DNA from: Escherichia coli
GTDB lineage: Bacteria > Pseudomonadota > Gammaproteobacteria > Enterobacterales > Enterobacteriaceae
Reading direction: 5' to 3' (one strand)
Length of the DNA: 64,000 bases
Assembly (NCBI RefSeq): GCF_016026235.1
Contig: NZ_CP065613.1
Part shown: positions 16,336 through 60,828 of the stretch, in pieces
Layout of the letters: every line of letters begins with the position of its first letter
How positions within the stretch are numbered: position 1 is the first letter of the stretch
Position numbers and translations under genes: made by a program
Notes under the pieces: generated by a model
What the model was told of the DNA's origin: nothing
Database searches by the model: none
Seen by the model: the letters and a program-made list of their open reading frames with translations, nothing else

Positions 16336-16668
16336 GTGCCTAATGCCCGCTCTCACGCTGTACTGACCACTGAATCAAAGGTCACGATACGCGGACAAAC
16401 AACTATCCCCGCGCCAGTGCGTGAGGCCTTAAAACTGAAGCCAGGCCTGGACAACATTCATTACGAAATTCTGCCTGGTGGGCAAGTATTTATGTGCCGA
16501 CTGGGAGATGAACAGGAGGATCATACTATGAATGCATTTTTGCGTTTTCTGGATGCAGATATCCAGAACAACCCGCAAAAAACTCGTCCATTCGACATTC
16601 AACAAGGAAAGAAACTTGTCGCTGGCATGGACGTCAACATTGATGATGAGATTGGCGACGACGAATAA
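16336..16668 (+). CDS. prlF: type II antitoxin / transcriptional autoregulator PrlF (AbrB/SpoVT-like)
   Basis: 110-aa ORF with GTG start, acidic C-terminus DDEIGDDE; stop overlaps next ATG (TAATG). Confidence 0.85.
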   Translation: MPNARSHAVLTTESKVTIRGQTTIPAPVREALKLKPGLDNIHYEILPGGQVFMCRLGDEQEDHTMNAFLRFLDADIQNNPQKTRPFDIQQGKKLVAGMDVNIDDEIGDDE

Positions 16669-17132
16669 TGGATTTTCCACAAAGGGTTAATGGTTGGGCG
16701 CTATATGCTCATCCCTGTTTTCAGGAAACCTACGACGCTTTAGTTGCCGAAGTCGAGACATTAAAGGGAAAAGATCCTGAAAATTATTAGAGAAATGCCG
16801 CCACAAAGTTATTGGCAGCAGTTCACAAAGTGATTGAGGAGCATATCACGGTCAATCCATCATCACCGGCATTCCGTCATGGCAAGTCGTTAGGCTCTGG
16901 GAAAAATAAAGACTGGTCACGGGTAAAATTTGGTGCTGGTCGTTATCGTCTCTTCTTTCGTTATAGTGAAAAAGAGAAAGTCATCATTCTGGGATGGATG
17001 AACGATGAAAACACGCTGCGCACCTACGGTAAAAAAACAGATGCCTATACCGTATTCAGCAAAATGTTAAAAAGAGGACATCCTCCTGCCGACTGGGAAA
17101 CCCTCACCCGAGAGACAGAAGAAACCCATTGA
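16668..17132 (+). pseudogene. yhaV: YhaV ribonuclease toxin reading frame interrupted by in-frame TAG at codon 41 (16788..16790)
   Basis: ATG at 16668 gives MDFPQRVNGWALYAHPCFQETYDALVAEVETLKGKDPENY then TAG, then 113 further in-frame codons without stop. Confidence 0.7.
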
Positions 17133-17186
17133 TGGTGTTCACAATGCCCGCCGAACGCATTCGTGTTGACCAGCGGGCACCCTTTC

Positions 17187-17996
17187 TCACTCCCCGACCA
17201 GAATCACTTCAACCCCAGCCTTTCGCAGTCCTTCCAGACTATCCGCAGGAATGCCTTCATCAACAATGATCATGTCGATACGTTGAGTATCAATGATCTT
17301 ATGTAAACTGGAACGATTGAATTTACTGGAATCGGTGACCACGATGATCCGTTCCGCAACTTCGCACATCCGGCGGTTTAAACGGGCTTCATCTTCATTA
17401 TGTGTGCTGACGCCGCGCTCCAGATCGATCGCATCTACACCAAGAAACAGCATATCGAAGTGGTAATTTTGCAGCGATTGCTCAGCCTGATCGCCGTAAA
17501 AAGATTGCGACTGACGGCGCAAATGCCCGCCGGTCATCAGCAGCTCAACGCCTTCCGCTTCCAGCAACGCATTAGCCACGTTCATACCGTTGGTCATCGC
17601 AATTACGTCAGTGTGCTTGCGCATCAGACGAGCAATCTCAAAAGTGGTGGTCCCGGAATCGAGGATCACCCGATGACCTGGCTGAATCAACTCAACGGCA
17701 GCTTTCGCAACGCTGCGTTTCATCGCGGTGTTCAGTGCGCTTTTATCTTCCACTGATGGCTCGACTGACGGCGTCGTGCTATCGCAGATCAACGCGCCAC
17801 CATAGGCACGCACAGCGATCCCCTGCTTTTCCAGAAACGCCAGATCGTTGCGGATCGTCACAGTAGATACGCCATACAATGCCGACAGATCGTTAACCTG
17901 CACACTCCCTTGCTGTCGCAGACGCTGAATGATCTGTTCTCGTCGCTCGCTGGTGCCTGTCACTCGCTTCTCACCTGAAGCGTCGGTATTACTCAT
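17187..17996 (-). CDS. agaR: DeoR-family repressor of the aga regulon
   Basis: 269-aa ORF with DeoR HTH ([20 protein letters not shown]). Confidence 0.9.
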
Positions 17997-18244
17997 AGTA
18001 AGTCCTTTCGTAAAACTTTCGTTTCATTTCGTTTTGCCTATTAACGCCTTTCTATTAAGCAAATGCAAGCCCACCTTGCCCATTGACGCAAGCTACTCTC
18101 GTTTCAGTGACTTTCATTATGTTTCTTTTGTGAATCAGATCAGAAAACTATTATCTTTCGTTTTATTTTTATCTCACCATGACGCAGTATCAACTGAAAC
18201 AAAACGAAAGATTAATATCGCAGTAATCTGAACTGGAGAGGAAA
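17997..18244. promoter_or_regulatory. divergent agaR / kbaZ promoter with multiple CTTTCGTTT-type repeats (AgaR operator-like)
   Basis: Repeats visible: cctttcgtaaaactttcgtttcatttcgtttt, tatctttcgttttattttt, aaacaaaacgaaagatta. Confidence 0.6.
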
Positions 18245-19525
18245 GTGAAACATCTGACAGAAATGGTGAGACAGCACAAAGCGGGCAAAACAAATGGAAT
18301 TTATGCCGTTTGTTCCGCACATCCGCTGGTGCTGGAGGCTGCAATCCGCTACGCCAGTGCAAATCAAACGCCGTTACTGATTGAAGCAACCTCCAATCAG
18401 GTAGACCAGTTCGGCGGTTATACCGGAATGACGCCCGCCGATTTTCGCGGCTTTGTTTGTCAGCTCGCCGACTCGTTGAATTTCCCGCAGGATGCGTTGA
18501 TTCTGGGTGGTGACCATCTGGGGCCAAACCGCTGGCAAAACCTGCCGGCCGCTCAGGCAATGGCCAATGCCGATGATTTGATTAAAAGCTACGTTGCGGC
18601 AGGATTCAAAAAAATCCACCTTGATTGCAGCATGTCCTGTCAGGACGATCCAATTCCCTTAACTGATGACATCGTGGCTGAACGCGCCGCCCGTCTGGCG
18701 AAAGTGGCGGAAGAAACCAGTCTTGAACACTTTGGCGAAGCCGATCTGGAGTATGTCATTGGTACCGAAGTGCCGGTACCTGGCGGCGCGCATGAAACCT
18801 TAAGCGAGCTGGCGGTCACCACGCCGGATGCCGCCCGCGCCACGCTGGAAGCCCATCGTCACGCCTTTGAAAAGCAGGGTCTGAATGCCATCTGGCCACG
18901 CATCATTGCCCTGGTGGTTCAACCCGGCGTCGAATTCGATCACACCAACGTTATTGATTATCAGCCCGCCAAAGCGACCACCTTAAGCCAGATGGTCGAA
19001 AACTACGAAACGCTGATTTTCGAAGCGCACTCTACCGATTATCAAACGCCGCAATCGCTGCGCCAGCTGGTGATTGACCACTTTGCCATTCTGAAAGTTG
19101 GCCCGGCGCTGACCTTCGCCCTGCGTGAAGCTCTGTTCTCTCTGGCGGCGATTGAAGAAGAACTGGTGCCAGCAAAAGCCTGTTCTGGTCTGCGTCAGGT
19201 GCTGGAAAACGTGATGCTCGACCGCCCGGAATACTGGCAAAGCCACTACCACGGTGACGGCAACGCGCGTCGTCTGGCGCGTGGTTATAGCTACTCGGAT
19301 CGCGTGCGCTATTACTGGCCGGACAGCCAGATTGATGACGCTTTCGCTCATCTGGTACGTAATCTGGCGGATTCACCAATTCCGCTGCCGCTGATCAGCC
19401 AGTATCTGCCGCTGCAGTACGTGAAAGTTCGCTCCGGCGAGCTGCAGCCAACGCCACGGGAACTCATTATCAACCATATTCAGGACATCCTGGCGCAGTA
19501 CCACACAGCCTGTGAAGGCCAATAA
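18245..19525 (+). CDS. kbaZ: tagatose-1,6-bisphosphate aldolase non-catalytic subunit
   Basis: 426-aa ORF, GTG start with SD ggagagg. Confidence 0.9.
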
Positions 19526-19547
19526 GCAAAACAAAGAGGAACACGCT

Positions 19548-20021
19548 ATGCCAAATATTGTTTTAAGCCGGATTGATGAACGCTTGATTCACGGTCAGGT
19601 CGGCGTTCAGTGGGTCGGATTTGCGGGGGCAAATCTGGTGCTGGTAGCCAACGATGAGGTTGCCGAAGATCCGGTACAACAAAACCTGATGGAAATGGTA
19701 CTGGCAGAAGGGATCGCCGTACGTTTCTGGACGCTGCAAAAAGTTATCGACAACATTCATCGCGCCGCCGATCGACAGAAAATCCTGCTGGTTTGTAAAA
19801 CACCCGCCGATTTCCTGACGCTGGTGAAAGGTGGCGTTCCGGTGAATCGCATTAACGTTGGCAATATGCACTACGCCAATGGCAAGCAACAAATCGCCAA
19901 AACGGTTTCTGTGGATGCGGGCGATATCGCAGCATTTAACGACCTGAAAGCCGCTGGGGTGGAATGCTTCGTTCAGGGCGTCCCGACAGAGCCTGCTGTG
20001 GACCTCTTTAAATTACTTTGA
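19548..20021 (+). CDS. agaV: PTS N-acetylgalactosamine-specific EIIB
   Basis: ORF track 19512..20021; ATG at 19548 gives 157 aa, MPNIVLSRIDERLIHGQ. Confidence 0.85.
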   Translation: MPNIVLSRIDERLIHGQVGVQWVGFAGANLVLVANDEVAEDPVQQNLMEMVLAEGIAVRFWTLQKVIDNIHRAADRQKILLVCKTPADFLTLVKGGVPVNRINVGNMHYANGKQQIAKTVSVDAGDIAAFNDLKAAGVECFVQGVPTEPAVDLFKLL

Positions 20022-20031
20022 GGGATTCATC

Positions 20032-20811
20032 ATGGAAATCAGTCTGTTGCAGGCATTCGCGTTGGGCATTATCGCCTTTATCGCTGGCCTGGATATGTTT
20101 AACGGCTTAACCCATATGCACCGCCCGGTGGTCCTCGGCCCGTTAGTCGGGCTGGTACTTGGCGATCTGCATACCGGTATTTTAACCGGCGGTACGCTGG
20201 AACTGGTGTGGATGGGGCTGGCCCCGTTGGCGGGCGCACAGCCGCCTAACGTGATTATCGGTACTATCGTCGGCACGGCGTTTGCCATTACTACTGGCGT
20301 GAAACCCGATGTCGCAGTCGGTGTCGCCGTACCTTTCGCTGTCGCAGTACAGATGGGGATTACCTTCCTGTTCTCGGTGATGTCTGGCGTGATGTCTCGC
20401 TGCGACCGGATGGCGGAGAACGCCGATACTCGCGGCATTGAACGCGTAAACTATCTGGCACTGCTGGCACTCGGCACTTTCTATTTTCTCTGCGCTTTCC
20501 TGCCTATCTACTTCGGCGCGGAACATGCAAAAACCATCATTGATGTCCTGCCGCAACGATTAATCGACGGCCTCGGCGTCGCAGGCGGCATCATGCCAGC
20601 AATCGGTTTTGCCGTGCTGCTGAAAATCATGATGAAAAACGTCTACATCCCCTACTTCATCCTGGGCTTTGTTGCCGCAGCCTGGCTCAAGTTACCGGTG
20701 CTGGCTATTGCTGCCGCCGCGCTGGCGATGGCGCTGATCGATCTGTTGCGTAAATCTCCTGAACCGACTCAACCTGCGGCACAGAAAGAGGAATTTGAAG
20801 ATGGCATCTAA
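20032..20811 (+). CDS. agaW: PTS N-acetylgalactosamine-specific EIIC (full length)
   Basis: 259-aa membrane ORF. Confidence 0.85.
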   Translation: MEISLLQAFALGIIAFIAGLDMFNGLTHMHRPVVLGPLVGLVLGDLHTGILTGGTLELVWMGLAPLAGAQPPNVIIGTIVGTAFAITTGVKPDVAVGVAVPFAVAVQMGITFLFSVMSGVMSRCDRMAENADTRGIERVNYLALLALGTFYFLCAFLPIYFGAEHAKTIIDVLPQRLIDGLGVAGGIMPAIGFAVLLKIMMKNVYIPYFILGFVAAAWLKLPVLAIAAAALAMALIDLLRKSPEPTQPAAQKEEFEDGI

Positions 20812-21679
20812 TCAAACCACCCTGCCGAACGTCAGTGAAAACGAAGAAACATTGCTGACTGGCGTCAATGAAAACGTGTATGAAGATCAGAGCATTGGCG
20901 CGGAGCTGACGAAAAAAGATATCAACCGCGTCACCTGGCGTTCCATGCTGTTACAAGCGTCTTTTAACTACGAACGTATGCAGGCTTCTGGCTGGTTGTA
21001 CGGTCTGCTGCCTGCTCTGAAAAAGATCCACACTAATAAACGCGACCTAGCGCGCGCCATGAAGGGGCATATGGGTTTCTTCAATACCCATCCGTTTCTG
21101 GTGACATTTGTTATCGGCATTATCCTTGCGATGGAGCGTTCTAAGCAGGACGTTAACAGTATTCAGAGCACCAAAATTGCCGTCGGTGCGCCGCTCGGCG
21201 GGATTGGCGATGCAATGTTCTGGCTAACGCTACTGCCGATTTGTGGCGGGATTGGAGCCAGTCTGGCATTGCAAGGCTCCATTCTTGGCGCAGTCGTCTT
21301 TATTGTGCTGTTCAACGTGGTACACCTGGGGCTGCGTTTTGGTCTGGCGCATTATGCTTACCGCATGGGCGTGGCGGCGATTCCACTCATTAAAGCGAAT
21401 ACCAAAAAAGTCGGCCATGCTGCGTCTATCGTTGGGATGACGGTAATCGGTGCGCTGGTGGCAACCTATGTTCGTTTAAGCACCACGCTGGAAATCACAG
21501 CGGGCGACGCAGTGGTTAAGTTACAGGCTGATGTTATTGACAAACTGATGCCTGCCTTCTTACCGCTGGTCTATACCCTGACCATGTTCTGGCTGGTACG
21601 TCGCGGCTGGAGTCCGCTACGCCTGATTGCGGTTACCGTGGTTCTCGGCATCGTCGGTAAATTCTGCCATTTCCTTTAA
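20801..21679 (+). CDS. agaE: PTS N-acetylgalactosamine-specific EIID
   Basis: ORF track 20795..21679; ATG at 20801 gives 292 aa; overlaps agaW stop. Confidence 0.85.
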   Translation: MASNQTTLPNVSENEETLLTGVNENVYEDQSIGAELTKKDINRVTWRSMLLQASFNYERMQASGWLYGLLPALKKIHTNKRDLARAMKGHMGFFNTHPFLVTFVIGIILAMERSKQDVNSIQSTKIAVGAPLGGIGDAMFWLTLLPICGGIGASLALQGSILGAVVFIVLFNVVHLGLRFGLAHYAYRMGVAAIPLIKANTKKVGHAASIVGMTVIGALVATYVRLSTTLEITAGDAVVKLQADVIDKLMPAFLPLVYTLTMFWLVRRGWSPLRLIAVTVVLGIVGKFCHFL

Positions 21680-21696
21680 ATACAATGAGGTATTAG

Positions 21697-22131
21697 ATGT
21701 TAAGTATTATTTTGACAGGGCATGGCGGGTTTGCCAGTGGCATGGAAAAAGCAATGAAGCAAATCCTCGGTGAGCAATCGCAGTTTATCGCCATCGATTT
21801 TCCGGAAACCTCAAGCACCGCGCTGCTTACATCGCAGCTTGAAGAGGCCATCGCCCAACTGGATTGTGAAGATGGCATTGTTTTTCTGACGGATTTGCTG
21901 GGCGGCACGCCGTTTCGCGTAGCTTCAACGCTGGCGATGCAAAAACCGGGCTGTGAAGTGATCACCGGCACCAATTTGCAACTGCTACTGGAGATGGCGC
22001 TGGAGCGCGAAGGGTTAAGCGGTGAAGAATTCCGTGTACAGGCGCTGGAGTGTGGACATCGTGGGCTGACCAGTCTGGTGGACGAGTTAGGCCGCTGCCA
22101 TGAAGAATGTCCGGTCGAGGAAGGGATATGA
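21697..22131 (+). CDS. agaF: PTS EIIA component (mannose family)
   Basis: 144-aa ORF; stop overlaps agaA start (ATGA). Confidence 0.85.
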   Translation: MLSIILTGHGGFASGMEKAMKQILGEQSQFIAIDFPETSSTALLTSQLEEAIAQLDCEDGIVFLTDLLGGTPFRVASTLAMQKPGCEVITGTNLQLLLEMALEREGLSGEEFRVQALECGHRGLTSLVDELGRCHEECPVEEGI

Positions 22132-23261
22132 CACACGTTCTGCGCGCCAGAAGGCTGCTGACTGAAGAGGGATGGCTCGATGACCATCAGTTGCGTATTG
22201 CTGACGGTGTCATCGCAGCAATCGAACCGATTCCAGTGGGCGTGACTGAACGCGATGCGGAACTGCTCTGCCCCGCTTACATCGACACCCATGTACACGG
22301 TGGTGCGGGCGTTGATGTAATGGATGACGCGCCGGATGTGCTCGACAAGCTGGCAATGCACAAGGCACGCGAAGGTGTCGGCAGTTGGTTACCGACTACC
22401 GTAACCGCGCCGCTTAATACCATTCATGCGGCGCTGAAACGTATTGCGCAACGTTGCCAACGCGGCGGACCTGGTGCGCAAGTGCTGGGGAGTTATCTCG
22501 AAGGACCGTACTTCACGCCGCAGAATAAAGGCGCGCATCCGCCGGAGTTGTTTCGCGAGCTTGAAATTGCCGAGCTGGATCAATTGATTGCCGTTTCTCA
22601 GCACACCTTACGCGTGGTAGCGCTGGCACCGGAAAAAGAGGGGGCATTGCAGGCCATCCGCCATCTTAAACAGCAAAATGTACGAGTGATGCTGGGGCAT
22701 AGCGCGGCGACCTGGCAACAAACTCGCGCCGCGTTTGATGCTGGTGCCGACGGCCTGGTGCATTGCTATAACGGGATGACAGGTTTACATCACCGCGAAC
22801 CGGGAATGGTTGGCGCGGGATTAACGGACAAGCGCGCCTGGCTGGAACTGATAGCCGATGGTCATCATGTGCATCCGGCGGCGATGTCGCTGTGTTGTTG
22901 CTGTGCGAAAGAGAGAATCGTGCTGATCACCGACGCGATGCAGGCAGCCGGGATGCCGGATGGTCGCTATACGTTATGTGGCGAAGAAGTGCAGATGCAC
23001 GGTGGCGTTGTCCGTACCGCGTCCGGTGGGCTGGCGGGCAGTACGCTGTCTGTTGATGCGGCAGTGCGCAATATGGTCGAGTTGACGGGCGTAACGCCTG
23101 CGGAAGCCATTCATATGGCATCGCTGCATCCGGCGCGAATGCTAGGTGTTGATGGTGTTCTGGGATCGCTTAAACCGGGCAAACGCGCCAGCGTCGTTGC
23201 GCTGGATAGCGGGCTGCATGTGCAACAAATCTGGATTCAGGGTCAATTAGCTTCGTTTTGA
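22128..23261 (+). CDS. agaA: N-acetylgalactosamine-6-phosphate deacetylase (full length)
   Basis: ORF track 22107..23261; ATG at 22128 gives 377 aa, MTHVLRARRLL. Confidence 0.85.
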   Translation: MTHVLRARRLLTEEGWLDDHQLRIADGVIAAIEPIPVGVTERDAELLCPAYIDTHVHGGAGVDVMDDAPDVLDKLAMHKAREGVGSWLPTTVTAPLNTIHAALKRIAQRCQRGGPGAQVLGSYLEGPYFTPQNKGAHPPELFRELEIAELDQLIAVSQHTLRVVALAPEKEGALQAIRHLKQQNVRVMLGHSAATWQQTRAAFDAGADGLVHCYNGMTGLHHREPGMVGAGLTDKRAWLELIADGHHVHPAAMSLCCCCAKERIVLITDAMQAAGMPDGRYTLCGEEVQMHGGVVRTASGGLAGSTLSVDAAVRNMVELTGVTPAEAIHMASLHPARMLGVDGVLGSLKPGKRASVVALDSGLHVQQIWIQGQLASF

Positions 23262-23335
23262 TGGTTTGCTCCATTATTGGGCCTTCACTTCCCCCGTAAG
23301 GCCTTTCTTTTTCTTTCGTTTTGATCTGTGCAGCG

Positions 23336-23393
23336 GTGTCGGATGCGACGCTAACGCGTCTTATGCGACCTACGGTACGCCGCATCCGGCAAT
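23336..23393. repeat. REP-like palindromic element
   Basis: gtcggatgcgacgctaacgcgtcttatgcgacctac ... gccgcatccggc, REP-like dyad. Confidence 0.5.
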
Positions 23394-23399
23394 CGGTGA

Positions 23400-23611
23400 A
23401 CATAGCGACGTCATTACGCAATTCTTTAATCTTCCCTTGTCTTTTCTTTCAATGATCGCAGATTTCGTTTTATTTCCTTTTTCTCCATTGAACTTTCGGT
23501 TTCTTTTCTATAGATTTTAATCAACGAAAGACATCACCAAGTGAAATGAAACGAAAGGCAAGTGAAAGCGACAACGCCCGACGTCAAGTTCATCAGACTA
23601 AGGATTGAGTT
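23400..23611 (+). promoter_or_regulatory. agaS promoter region with CTTTCGTTT-type repeats (AgaR operator-like)
   Basis: Repeats: gatttcgttttatttcc, aactttcggtttcttttc, aacgaaagacatc, gaaatgaaacgaaaggcaagtgaaagc. Confidence 0.55.
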
Positions 23612-24766
23612 ATGCCAGAAAATTACACCCCTGCTGCCGCCGCATCCGGTACATGGACTGAAGAAGAGATCCGCCATCAGCCTCGCGCATGGATCCGTTC
23701 ACTCACCAACATCGACGCGCTACGTTCCGCGCTCAATAACTTCCTTGAACCGTTACTGCGCAAAGAGAATCTGCGGATCATCCTGACCGGAGCCGGAACC
23801 TCGGCATTTATCGGTGACATCATCGCGCCGTGGCTCGCCAGCCATACCGGTAAAAACTTCAGCGCCGTACCAACCACCGATCTGGTCACTAATCCGATGG
23901 ACTACCTGAACCCAGCTCATCCGCTGCTGTTGATCTCCTTCGGTCGATCCGGCAACAGCCCGGAAAGCGTCGCTGCCGTGGAACTGGCAAATCAATTTGT
24001 ACCGGAATGCTATCACCTGCCGATTACCTGCAACGAAGCGGGCGCTCTTTACCAAAACGCGATCAACAGCGATAACGCGTTTGCCCTGCTGATGCCCGCA
24101 GAAACGCACGATCGCGGCTTTGCGATGACCAGCAGCATTACCACCATGATGGCCAGCTGCCTCGCGGTTTTCGCACCTGAGACGATCAACAGCCAAACCT
24201 TCCGCGACGTGGCGGATCGTTGCCAGGCGATCCTGACCTCACTGGGCGATTTCAGCGAAGGTGTGTTTGGTTACGCACCGTGGAAACGGATCGTTTATCT
24301 CGGCAGCGGTGGCTTACAGGGCGCAGCACGCGAGTCGGCGCTGAAAGTGCTGGAACTGACGGCGGGTAAACTGGCGGCCTTTTATGATTCTCCAACCGGA
24401 TTCCGTCATGGACCAAAATCGCTGGTCGATGACGAAACGCTGGTGGTGGTATTTGTCTCCAGCCACCCTTACACCCGTCAGTATGATCTTGATCTGCTGG
24501 CTGAACTCCGCCGTGACAACCAGGCAATGCGCGTAATCGCCATCGCCGCGGAAAGCAGCGACATCGTCGCTGCCGGTCCACATATCATCCTACCGCCGTC
24601 ACGTCACTTTATCGACGTTGAGCAGGCATTTTGCTTCCTGATGTACGCCCAGACGTTTGCACTGATGCAGTCGCTGCACATGGGCAATACGCCGGATACC
24701 CCATCAGCCAGTGGCACCGTTAACCGCGTGGTGCAAGGCGTAATCATTCATCCGTGGCAGGCATAA
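23612..24766 (+). CDS. agaS: galactosamine-6-phosphate deaminase/isomerase (SIS domains)
   Basis: 384-aa ORF, SD aaggattgag. Confidence 0.9.
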   Translation: MPENYTPAAAASGTWTEEEIRHQPRAWIRSLTNIDALRSALNNFLEPLLRKENLRIILTGAGTSAFIGDIIAPWLASHTGKNFSAVPTTDLVTNPMDYLNPAHPLLLISFGRSGNSPESVAAVELANQFVPECYHLPITCNEAGALYQNAINSDNAFALLMPAETHDRGFAMTSSITTMMASCLAVFAPETINSQTFRDVADRCQAILTSLGDFSEGVFGYAPWKRIVYLGSGGLQGAARESALKVLELTAGKLAAFYDSPTGFRHGPKSLVDDETLVVVFVSSHPYTRQYDLDLLAELRRDNQAMRVIAIAAESSDIVAAGPHIILPPSRHFIDVEQAFCFLMYAQTFALMQSLHMGNTPDTPSASGTVNRVVQGVIIHPWQA

Positions 24767-25733: not shown

Positions 25734-25742
25734 ATCAGTACA
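25734..25742. repeat. left copy of 9-bp target-site duplication ATCAGTACA
   Basis: Identical 9-mer directly abuts both IS1 ends. Confidence 0.9.
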
Positions 25743-25757
25743 GGTAATGACTCCAAC

Positions 25758-26261
25758 TTATTGATAGTGTTTTATGTTCAGATAATGCCCGATGACTTTG
25801 TCATGCAGCTCCACCGATTTTGAGAACGACAGCGACTTCCGTCCCAGCCGTGCCAGGTGCTGCCTCAGATTCAGGTTATGCCGCTCAATTCGCTGCGTAT
25901 ATCGCTTGCTGATTACGTGCAGCTTTCCCTTCAGGCGGGATTCATACAGCGGCCAGCCATCCGTCATCCATATCACCACGTCAAAGGGTGACAGCAGGCT
26001 CATAAGACGCCCCAGCGTCGCCATAGTGCGTTCACCGAATACGTGCGCAACAACCGTCTTCCGGAGACTGTCATACGCGTAAAACAGCCAGCGCTGGCGC
26101 GATTTAGCCCCGACATAGCCCCACTGTTCGTCCATTTCCGCGCAGACGATGACGTCACTGCCCGGCTGTATGCGCGAGGTTACCGACTGCGGCCTGAGTT
26201 TTTTAAGTGACGTAAAATCGTGTTGAGGCCAACGCCCATAATGCGGGCAGTTGCCCGGCAT
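25758..26261 (-). CDS. insB: IS1 InsB (transposase C-terminal part, made as InsAB' by -1 frameshift)
   Basis: 167-aa [25 protein letters not shown]... Confidence 0.9.
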
Positions 26262-26455
26262 CCAACGCCATTCATGGCCATATCAATGATTTTCTGGTGC
26301 GTACCGGGTTGAGAAGCGGTGTAAGTGAACTGCAGTTGCCATGTTTTACGGCAGTGAGAGCAGAGATAGCGCTGATGTCCGGCGGTGCTTTTGCCGTTAC
26401 GCACCACCCCGTCAGTAGCTGAACAGGAGGGACAGCTGATAGAAACAGAAGCCAC
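26180..26455 (-). CDS. insA: IS1 InsA (transposition inhibitor / transposase N-terminal part)
   Basis: 91-aa [43 protein letters not shown] (zinc-finger + HTH). Confidence 0.9.
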
Positions 26456-26510
26456 TGGAGCACCTCAAAAACACCATCATACACTAAATCAGTAAGTTGG
26501 CAGCATCACC

Positions 26511-26519
26511 ATCAGTACA
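26511..26519. repeat. right copy of 9-bp target-site duplication ATCAGTACA
   Basis: Identical to 25734..25742. Confidence 0.9.
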
Positions 26520-53762: not shown

Positions 53763-53936
53763 ATCTTCTGCGCATCCTCGCGACTAATGACAACCCTAAC
53801 CCAGCTCTATGTGGGTAAAGCCTCTCATTAGCCGCGCGAACCTCTGCAACGGAAGATCATTCATAGCAACAATACATTAGTTTCCAGTGAATTGCTGCCG
53901 TCAGCTTGAAAAAAGGGGCCACTCAGGCCCCCTTTT
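53763..53936 (+). ncRNA. sraG: small RNA SraG (PsrO), antisense to the pnp leader
   Basis: Position between rpsO and pnp on opposite strand, recalled from K-12 annotation; + strand hairpin ggggcc-actca-ggcccc followed by T-run at 53915..53936. Confidence 0.4.
53909..53936. terminator. bidirectional rho-independent terminator (rpsO on minus strand)
   Basis: aaaaaaggggccactcaggcccccttttct. Confidence 0.7.
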
Positions 53937-53952: not shown

Positions 53953-54318
<366 letters not shown>

Positions 54319-55789: not shown

Positions 55790-55875
55790 CGTTGGCCTGA
55801 TAAGACGCGCCAGCGTCACATCAGGCAATCCATGCCGGATGCGGCGTAAACGCCTTATCCCGCATGGAACCCTAA
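55790..55875. repeat. REP-like palindromic elements
   Basis: ggcctgataagacgcgccagcgtcacatcaggc and gccggatgcggcgtaaacgccttatcccgcatgg. Confidence 0.6.
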
Positions 55876-60545: not shown

Positions 60546-60606
60546 GCCCACCCCCAAGACATAAAAAAAGGGCCTAAAGCCCAGTTATTCTGTAGTCAGA
60601 TAACAA

Positions 60607-60631
60607 AAAACCCCGATAAATCGGGGCTTTA
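60607..60631 (-). terminator. hairpin between metY and rimP (operon leader attenuator)
   Basis: ccccga-taaa-tcgggg with A6 run (T-run on minus strand). Confidence 0.5.
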
Positions 60632-60751
60632 TATAACTGAACCCTATAACCGCAACTGCGGTCTGGAGCACTTTCCAGAAGGATTTTTTCAAATCCCACT
60701 ACGAAGGTCGAAGTCTTCACAGTATATTTGAAAAAGGACTCTAAGGGAAAG

Positions 60752-60828
<77 letters not shown>

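Follow-up and report, generated by a model that had tools for sequence, protein, structure and literature searches.

Repeat arrays at the agaR, kbaZ and agaS promoters of Escherichia coli as very probable operators of the repressor AgaR

Introduction

Control of the aga/gam regulon by AgaR was described in 2004 and is recorded in standard regulatory databases. AgaR shares a DeoR-type HTH and a sugar-phosphate sensor domain with DeoR (deoO1/O2/OE) and with GlpR (glp operons). In the DeoR and GlpR systems several operators serve each promoter, overlapping or flanking its core, and CRP exerts co-control. The operators of DeoR and GlpR are palindromes. In contrast, the AgaR sites are runs of direct 5-nt repeats, and whole runs stand in opposite orientation on the two sides of a promoter.

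The closest described system is that of E. coli K-12, whose AgaR operators (Ray & Larson 2004, Mol Microbiol 51:813; Leyn et al. 2012, J Biol Chem 287:28047) involve the same genes, the same repressor, and the same promoters PR, PZ, and PS as the locus analysed here. AgaR binds the agaR, kbaZ, and agaS promoters in K-12, GalNAc induces PZ 5-fold and PS 20-fold, and deletion of agaR makes agaA and agaS constitutive (PMC3668189). AgaR binding and AgaR-dependent repression in K-12 are credited to Ray & Larson 2004 in passages of PMC3668189 and PMC5018945, and the AgaR regulon of Leyn et al. 2012 is summarised in a passage of the latter. A 20-nt sequence from 'PkbaZ', CTTTCGTTTCATTTTCGTTT, served as the AgaR site on a synthetic promoter, on which AgaR-dependent regulation was measured (PMC8667592 Table S3). 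The aga/gam regulon supports growth of gut E. coli on mucin-derived GalNAc, and loss of AgaR unlocks the use of glucose or tagatose via the aga PTS and aldolase (PMC9628945; PMC10101011).

Here we analyse the control regions of this regulon in a 64,000-nt stretch of E. coli DNA (hereinafter the window) and compare them with orthologous loci of other Enterobacterales.

Results

The aga/gam locus in the window

The 64-kb window contains the aga/gam cluster of E. coli, as judged from the list of open reading frames (ORFs) and from the annotation of a 99.9% identical strain. Specifically, positions 17000-24000 are 99.9% identical to E. coli FDAARGOS_943, and at least 80% of this segment is covered in 4,931 of 5,426 complete E. 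coli genomes. The repressor gene agaR (17187..17996, minus strand) is an ORF that carries this name in the RefSeq annotation of the 99.9% identical strain. Its product combines an N-terminal DeoR-type HTH (HTH_DeoR, PF08220, residues 18-74; 1.9e-21, 76 bits against a cutoff of 21) with a C-terminal sensor domain (DeoRC, PF00455, residues 89-247; 3.3e-55, 186.8 bits against a cutoff of 31.8), as a DeoR-family repressor does. On the plus strand, kbaZ (18245-19525) was placed by ORF and annotation; agaV, agaW, agaE, and agaF lie between kbaZ and agaA according to the annotation; and agaA (22107-23261) was placed by annotation and the ORF list. The gene agaS (23612..24766, plus strand; ORF, annotation, and Pfam SIS domain) is the first of the agaS-kbaY-agaBCDI operon, and it is followed in the annotation by kbaY and then agaB, agaC, agaD, and agaI.

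Two control regions result from this arrangement. The first, 17997-18244, is the entire divergent agaR(-)/kbaZ(+) intergenic region. The second is the agaA/agaS intergenic region (23262-23611), of which 23400-23611 lies next to the promoter.

The agaR-kbaZ region differs from that of K-12 MG1655 by one base (18149), which lies outside the operators and every conserved block, and the K-12 experiments therefore transfer directly. The sequence at 18016-18034, CTTTCGTTTCATTTCGTTT, is the same in K-12 and has one T fewer than the published site CTTTCGTTTCATTTTCGTTT. The agaS core operators of K-12 are identical or nearly identical to those of the window. No substantive difference from the K-12 system was seen. 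The strain analysed here keeps the full agaVWEFA segment, which K-12 has lost through a 2.3-kb deletion, and the two strains differ in their allele of the second REP, which stands upstream of PS.

An IS1 was also observed in the agaS operon, at 25743-26510. The exact IS1 junction was sought in 5,426 genomes of E. coli; the matches listed were all in two pieces, which means that IS1 lies nearby at other positions. A yhaV pseudogene was seen as well.

Repeat arrays in the two control regions

Of the 8 exact copies of TTTCGTTT in the 64-kb window, 7 fall within the agaR-kbaZ and agaA-agaS intergenic regions (plus strand at 18017, 18027, 18156, 23314, and 23463; minus strand at 18202 and 23549). 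Likewise, CTTTCRTTT occurs 6 times in the window against 1.8 expected, 5 of these within the two control regions. A motif-blind repeat finder returned direct and inverted copies in each region. Specifically, 18153-18168 and 18197-18212 form an inverted pair with 94% complementarity, 23463-23476 and 23543-23556 form another with 93%, and both pairs bracket predicted core promoters.

The repeat unit is 5 nt, as seen at 18017-18036 (TTTCG TTTCA TTTCG TTTTG) and, on the minus strand, at 23542-23556 (TTTCG TTTCA TTTCA). The motif is a run of such TTTCR/TTTYR units over about 20-24 nt. The initial annotation had reported direct and inverted motif copies in both control regions, and the TTTCGTTT counts, the repeat finder, and the consensus scan described below all bear this out; the repeats it described are real, but the motif is longer than the CTTTCGTTT that it named.

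A 24-nt AgaR consensus, WRMMTTTCRTTTYRTTTYNYTTKK, is said to come from the 2004 work and to have been derived originally from these very K-12 sites. The only checks on this form of it are two sites that it matches perfectly and the published 20-mer, and a literature search for the consensus string returned no match. At a cut-off of at most 3 mismatches, it matched the window 6 times against 0.15 expected, and none of 100 shuffles reached 6. All six matches lie in the two control regions, which together span 598 nt or 0.9% of the window: 18013-36 (+, 0 mismatches), 18108-31 (+, 1), 18190-213 (-, 3), 23300-23 (+, 3), 23459-82 (+, 2), and 23537-60 (-, 0). Because the consensus was derived from K-12 sites, the E. 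coli matches are partly circular. We therefore fetched orthologous loci from other Enterobacterales, and the independent evidence for the motif comes only from these other genera and from the repeat finder.

Conservation across Enterobacterales

The comparison comprised 80 loci with AgaR orthologues (81-99% identity) from other Enterobacterales, including Klebsiella, Citrobacter, Enterobacter, Yersinia, Serratia, Buttiauxella, Cedecea, and Mixta, as well as Salmonella arizonae and diarizonae; with the window this gave 81 sequences and about 1.2 Mb. The synteny agaR<>kbaZ-agaV...agaA-agaS-kbaY is kept in the orthologous loci, and the agaR-kbaZ intergenic region measures 245-251 nt in most of them. 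The 81 sequences contain 325 consensus matches, of which 321 lie in the same two control regions, 210 in the agaR-kbaZ intergenic region and 111 at most 420 nt upstream of agaS. The rest of the roughly 1.2 Mb holds only 4 matches, 2 of them boundary artefacts. Counted from the start of kbaZ, the matches recur at fixed offsets of about -233 (+), -137 (+), and -55 (-), as they do in the window. In alignments of the agaR-kbaZ region (27 genera) and of the agaS upstream region (22 sequences), operators, the CRP site, and promoter hexamers form conserved islands with mean identities of 0.81-1.00, whereas the intervening DNA is unconserved, with mean identities of 0.30-0.69. Expansions of the pentamer were also observed in other genera.

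The TTTCGTTT arrays are very probably operators of AgaR, the DeoR-family repressor of the N-acetylgalactosamine/galactosamine (aga/gam) regulon. The proposal of the initial annotation that DeoR-family operator arrays for AgaR lie at the agaR/kbaZ and agaS promoters is supported by the HTH_DeoR and DeoRC domains of the protein, by a published site nearly equal to 18016-18034, and by motif copies at fixed positions in 80 orthologous loci.

Probable operators and predicted promoters of the agaR-kbaZ region

A simple sigma-70 scan of the agaR-kbaZ region did not recover the promoters proposed below; it returned two minus-strand candidates (18193 to 18165 and 18177 to 18150), neither of which coincides with conserved blocks. 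Upstream of agaS, the same type of scan called no promoter. Because these scans were unhelpful, the promoters were assigned from conservation instead.

Operator OR (AAACTTTCGTTTCATTTCGTTTTG; 18013..18036, plus strand) consists of four tandem 5-nt units and matches the consensus without mismatch. In 27 genera, 16 of its 24 columns are at least 90% conserved, with a mean identity of 0.87. Conservation points to the minus-strand combination TTGCAT-18 nt-TTAATA as a plausible agaR promoter, PR (18039..18068), with the -35 hexamer at 18068 to 18063, the -10 hexamer at 18044 to 18039, and an 18-nt spacer between them. On the plus strand, TATTAA at 18039-44 has an identity of 1.00 across the 27 genera, and ATGCAA at 18063-68 has 0.96. 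The PR spacer contains a conserved CCTTTCT (18047-18053). From its position relative to PR, we infer that OR lies over the predicted agaR transcription start, which would fall at about 18031 on the minus strand. Beyond PR, the segment 18072-18107 is unconserved, with a mean identity of 0.43.

Operator OZ1 (18108..18131, plus strand; 1 mismatch to the consensus) lies directly upstream of a CRP-like site and overlaps it by 3 nt. At the position of OZ1, -137 or -136 from the kbaZ start, 64 consensus matches were found in the 81 sequences scanned, and 15 of 24 columns are at least 90% conserved (mean identity 0.89). The CRP-like site, TGTGAATCAGATCAGA (18129..18144), has 1 mismatch to TGTGA-N6-TCACA and a mean identity of 0.94 across genera. 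It would lie at about -61.5 from the predicted kbaZ start, and the kbaZ promoter is reportedly CRP-dependent.

The remaining two operators of kbaZ lie at its predicted promoter, PZ. OZ2 (ATCTTTCGTTTTATTTTTATC; 18153..18173, plus strand) lies over the predicted -35 region. Its TTTCGTTTTATTTT fits the core of the motif with 0 mismatches. OZ2 is one arm of the 94% inverted pair with OZ3, and 15 of its 21 columns are at least 90% conserved, with a mean identity of 0.90. The predicted -10 hexamer is CAGTAT (18185..18190, plus strand; mean identity 0.92), and four of its positions, C, A, A, and T, do not vary among the 27 genera. Taking CAGTAT as the -10 hexamer on the strength of this conservation, we infer that kbaZ transcription would start near 18197. 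OZ3 (AATCTTTCGTTTTGTTTCAGTTGA on the minus strand; 18190..18213) is an inverted copy with 3 mismatches over this predicted start. Its CGAAAG core is invariant or nearly so, its mean identity is 0.86, and at its position, -57 to -54 from kbaZ, 47 consensus matches were found in the 81 sequences scanned.

Two further motif fragments in this region were rejected as operators. The agaR Shine-Dalgarno sequence, read on the opposite strand, accounts for CTTTC at 18005-18009, and the kbaZ ribosome-binding site accounts for GAAAG at 18240. An Rfam scan found no RNA family in either control region, with a sub-threshold REP/naRNA4 match only; the microRNA models that it matched are spurious and pick up the inverted operators.

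Probable operators and predicted promoter of agaS

The 22-sequence alignment shows a conserved core, collinear and without indels, that extends from a GATCRCA half-site (23453-60) as far as the agaS ATG. The half-site is the conserved right half of a putative weak CRP-like site (23445..23460). Its GATCACA has a mean identity of 0.83 across genera, the left half is poor, and 23445-23460 is absent from the CRP matches with at most 2 mismatches.

Operator OS1 (CAGATTTCGTTTTATTTCCTTTTT; 23459..23482, plus strand; 2 mismatches) lies just upstream of the predicted -35 hexamer of the agaS promoter, PS. Its TTTCGTTTTATTTC is kept in nearly all genera and lies about 150 nt before the agaS ATG in at least 60 loci; most loci have 147-152 nt between OS1 and the ATG, and the window has 149 nt. 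The predicted PS core (23488..23516, plus strand) comprises a -35 hexamer TTGAAC (23488-23493), a spacer, and a -10 hexamer TAGATT (23511-23516). The spacer holds OS2 (CTTTCGGTTTCTTTTCT, CTTTCGrTTTCTTTTC; 23493-23509), an operator-like member of the direct-repeat family whose fit to the consensus is poor, with more than 3 mismatches. ATTGAAC, CTTTCGATTTCTTTTC, and TATAGATTT, the last of which is the predicted -10 hexamer, are conserved with mean identities of 0.86-0.90. Downstream of the predicted PS start, which would fall at about 23523, operator OS3 (TGCCTTTCGTTTCATTTCACTTGG on the minus strand; 23537..23560) is an inverted copy with 0 mismatches, and its GAAAyGAAACGAAAG holds most of the invariant columns of the alignment. 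OS1 and OS3 are 79-81 nt apart in 61 of 70 loci and 80 nt apart in the window.

The probable agaA terminator and its distal repeat

The initial annotation had placed the agaS set within 23400-23611. The proximal copies do lie there, but a further copy, 23300-23323, lies outside this interval and upstream of the REP. The segment 23279-23323 (plus strand) is a probable intrinsic terminator of the kbaZ-agaA operon, and the "operator" at 23300-23323 would be its U-tract. Specifically, a hairpin (23279-23304; -11.9 kcal/mol) stands directly before the consensus match at 23300-23323 and is continued by the U-tract/CTTTC repeat GCCTTTCTTTTTCTTTCGTTTTG (23301-23323). A simple terminator scan did not call this terminator, probably because its loop is long; folding brought it to light. 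The 18 genera compared all retain the hairpin with a changing inner-stem sequence, at -11.5 to -19.4 kcal/mol against -9.8 in E. coli. In E. coli the hairpin is accompanied by UUUCUUUUU but has a weak stem (-9.8 to -11.9 kcal/mol, z -1.1). The terminator tail with its CTTTC has a mean identity of 0.86.

It is an even question whether 23300-23323 is only the U-rich tail of the agaA terminator, so that PS would have three proximal operators only and the operator resemblance of the tail would be a by-product of its T-richness. Consistent with this, the segment directly follows the hairpin, which is conserved while its inner-stem sequence varies; it has 3 mismatches to the consensus, with its first CTTTC out of the 5-nt phase; and its distance to OS1 varies by lineage, at about 39, 94, or 150 nt. 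However, about 20 of 22 genera retain a CTTTC behind the first 8 U residues, which is more than a terminator tail requires; Kosakonia pseudosacchari has an expanded form of it, (CTTTCG)n; and GCCTTTCTTTT of the tail recurs inside the conserved agaR promoter spacer. The repeat has about equal chances of being a distal AgaR site, and it is regarded here as a candidate.

The REP element upstream of agaS

The REP-like element that the initial annotation had noted at 23336..23393, beside the agaS set, is real, as indicated by a pattern match, its fold, and its alignment to a copy at 55.8 kb. It consists of one REP (23338-23372) and a partial inverted REP (23378-23391), together 23338..23391 on the plus strand, and occurs in Escherichia loci only. 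The REP region folds with -34.9 kcal/mol (z -2.7). The REP pattern matches at 23341-23365, and the second copy in the window, 55799-55823, lies inside an above-threshold naRNA4 region (55794-55864). The element at 23338-23372 aligns to the REP half of the naRNA4 model (E 0.046) as well as to the 55.8-kb copy. It is an extragenic, imperfect palindrome of ~35 nt with the REP consensus and another genomic copy. The naRNA4 gathering score is not reached (23.2 bits against a threshold of 59.5 bits), as expected for an allele with only one complete REP, and the element is therefore not filed as naRNA4. As in the REP/BIME elements of E. coli, including naRNA4 (RF02564), a 35-nt imperfect palindrome, here GTCGGATGCGACGCTAACGCGTCTTATGCGACCTAC, lies extragenically after a terminator; the K-12-type allele has two inverted REPs, whereas the one described here has one complete REP and a fragment.

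Among the non-Escherichia loci compared, REP-like sequence upstream of agaS is absent from all, and an unrelated AT-rich stretch takes its place. The agaA-agaS intergenic region measures 343-350 nt with the REP (Escherichia) and 237-305 nt elsewhere. The distance from the terminator-associated CTTTC repeat to OS1 is about 150 nt with the REP, compared with about 94 nt in other genera and about 39 nt in the Enterobacter, Lelliottia, and Kosakonia group. Within E. coli, the REP segment has at least 80% query coverage in 5,307 of 5,337 matching genomes. There are two REP alleles of equal length. One is shared by the window and a cryptic-clade Escherichia; the other, with a complete second inverted REP, is common to K-12, UTI89, and O55:H7. 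The proximal operators are unaffected by the REP allele.

It had been suggested that REP insertion reshaped the spacing at the agaS promoter. This is correct for the intergenic region, which is longer, and for the distal CTTTC repeat, which has been pushed away, but the spacing of the core promoter and operators is unchanged. That the insertion thereby changed regulation is unlikely. The REP-bearing segment, which occurs in Escherichia only, does lengthen the intergenic region and increase the distance between OS1 and the CTTTC repeat of the terminator from about 94 to about 150 nt. However, genera without the REP are collinear with the window over the whole stretch between the GATCRCA half-site and the agaS ATG, and the core spacings of the window fall within their ranges; the upstream distance already varies among genera without the REP (39 vs 94 nt); and total length does not differ between the two REP haplotypes of E. 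coli. The REP lies upstream of, and outside, the constrained agaS promoter/operator core, and the core operator spacing is unchanged.

A combination of both elements is a speculative and rather improbable reading. The terminator U-tract GCCTTTCTTTTyCTTTCG (23301-23318) might double as a distal AgaR operator that loops to the PS-proximal operators, and the Escherichia-specific REP/BIME might have retuned this loop from about 94 to about 150 nt. If so, read-through of the kbaZ operon would be coupled to repression of PS.

Discussion

It is very improbable that the T-rich pentamers simply reflect the AT-richness of promoters in general (UP-element-like or curved DNA), or bind another factor such as H-NS, Fis, or NagC, instead of being AgaR-specific sites. 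Both control regions are AT-rich (GC 0.36 and 0.44), T-tracts are common in promoters, and less strict forms of the motif are found at other places in the window (6606, 6953, 25593, 33746, and 62624). However, the C and G of CTTTCG vary little or not at all among 27 genera while adjacent AT-rich DNA varies, the full motif occurs essentially only beside agaR-linked operons in 1.2 Mb of orthologous DNA, a site of the same sequence served as an AgaR binding site on a synthetic promoter (PMC8667592), and AgaR binding to purified DNA and agaR-dependent protection or repression have reportedly been shown (Ray & Larson 2004, as cited in a passage of PMC3668189).

With AgaR as the protein that occupies the arrays, the arrangement of the operators suggests how repression may work. 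Each operator consists of three or four tandem 5-nt units (TTTCG-TTTYR-TTTCN-TTTTG), so that the strongest TTTC elements recur every 10 bp, which would place the contacts on one face of the helix. At PR, one operator over the predicted start and the CTTTC in the spacer would mediate autorepression of agaR. At PZ, which would drive kbaZ-agaVWEFA, OZ1 would abut the CRP site at about -61.5, OZ2 would cover the -35 region, and the inverted OZ3 would cover the start. At PS, which would drive agaS-kbaY-agaBCDI, OS1 would stand just upstream of the -35 hexamer, OS2 in the spacer, and the inverted OS3 at about +14 to +37.

Bound as an oligomer, AgaR would shut out or trap RNA polymerase and compete with CRP. 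Because operators are predicted to lie over the start, the -35 region or spacer, the early transcribed region, and, at PZ and possibly PS, the edge of a CRP site, repression would combine occlusion, interference with CRP, and possibly a roadblock. Contacts between oppositely oriented flanking sites may stabilise AgaR occupancy. The flanking arrays face opposite ways, as would suit bridging by an AgaR oligomer, and AgaR may act cooperatively or by looping. A sugar phosphate formed from GalNAc or GalN would release AgaR; according to the literature, either sugar induces these promoters.

The AgaR operators described here are already known, at textbook level for this regulon, and their recognition in this strain signifies little beyond correct annotation. 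What the comparison adds is a phylogenetic footprint: the operator architecture of the three promoters is kept nearly base for base across Enterobacterales.

Operator-like repeats in the agaR–kbaZ and agaS upstream regions

The alignments of the agaR–kbaZ intergenic region (27 genera) and of the agaS upstream region (22 sequences) show that the operator repeat units have, in some genera, undergone microsatellite-like expansion. Citrobacter sp. NCU1 carries an (AAAAC)n run, which accounts for 20 extra nt, at the position of OZ3, the inverted AgaR operator predicted at the kbaZ promoter. In Serratia sp. DD3, OR, the predicted AgaR operator at the agaR promoter, is longer by 9 nt of CATTTCGTT type. 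Kosakonia pseudosacchari has a (CTTTCG)n run located 3’ of the predicted agaA terminator.

Two additional operator-like half-copies are present in the window. Specifically, ACTCTCGTTTCA (18095-18106) lies in an otherwise unconserved part of the agaR–kbaZ region, and AACGAAAG (23524-23531; CTTTCGTT on the minus strand) is located at the predicted agaS start. Among the aligned sequences, both half-copies are found in Escherichia only, the other genera having unrelated sequence at these positions.

A predicted terminator and REP elements between agaA and agaS

The predicted intrinsic terminator of agaA forms a hairpin at 23279-23304. Its stem is strong in other genera, with −11.5 to −19.4 kcal/mol; in Escherichia the inner stem is decayed, with −9.8 to −10.5 kcal/mol. 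This decay suggests that transcription of the kbaZ operon runs on into agaS more often in E. coli.

Directly downstream of the first REP (repetitive extragenic palindromic) element, comparison of 23372-23430 of the window with the comparison loci L082, L083, L084, and L004 defines two E. coli alleles of equal length. The second REP is truncated in the window and in Escherichia sp. MOD1-EC7003, while it is full and inverted in K-12, UTI89, and O55:H7, forming a BIME. Because of these two alleles, about half of the E. coli genomes are only 90–95% identical over the agaA–agaS intergenic region.

Neighbouring genes and structured RNAs

Directly downstream of agaR lies yhaV (16668-17132), which encodes the toxin of the prlF-yhaV toxin–antitoxin pair and whose codon 41 is an in-frame stop; the gene is annotated as a pseudogene in the closest RefSeq strain as well, and prlF is apparently intact in the window. 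The aga cluster of Escherichia albertii NBRC 107761 (L003, 1-2900) stops after agaA. It is followed by unrelated genes, including one on the opposite strand for a secreted protein of 253 aa, and agaS and kbaY are absent from the 2.7 kb downstream of agaA.

Elsewhere in the window, Rfam matches at the gathering threshold correspond to RNase P RNA (9558-9934, minus strand), SraG sRNA (53765-53936, plus strand), and, all on the minus strand, the S15 leader (54166-54280), REP-derived naRNA4 (55794-55864), the rimP leader (60563-60663), and two tRNAs (60755-60828 and 63734-63817).

An IS1 insertion in the agaS operon

A complete IS1 of 768 bp (25743-26510) lies between kbaY and agaB, within the agaS-kbaY-agaBCDI operon; its minus-strand transposase matches Pfam DDE_Tnp_IS1 (5.9e-78). 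The element is flanked by 9-bp direct target duplications, ATCAGTACA, at 25734-25742 and 26511-26519. The kbaY–agaB gap is 943 nt in the window, compared with 166 nt in a strain that is elsewhere 99.9% identical. A query spanning the IS1 junction was covered to at least 80% by 27 E. coli genomes; none of the 12 listed of these 27 has IS1 at the exact position of the window. All 12 match in two pieces, which means that IS1 lies nearby but at other positions. The insertion is likely to exert a polar effect on the galactosamine PTS genes.
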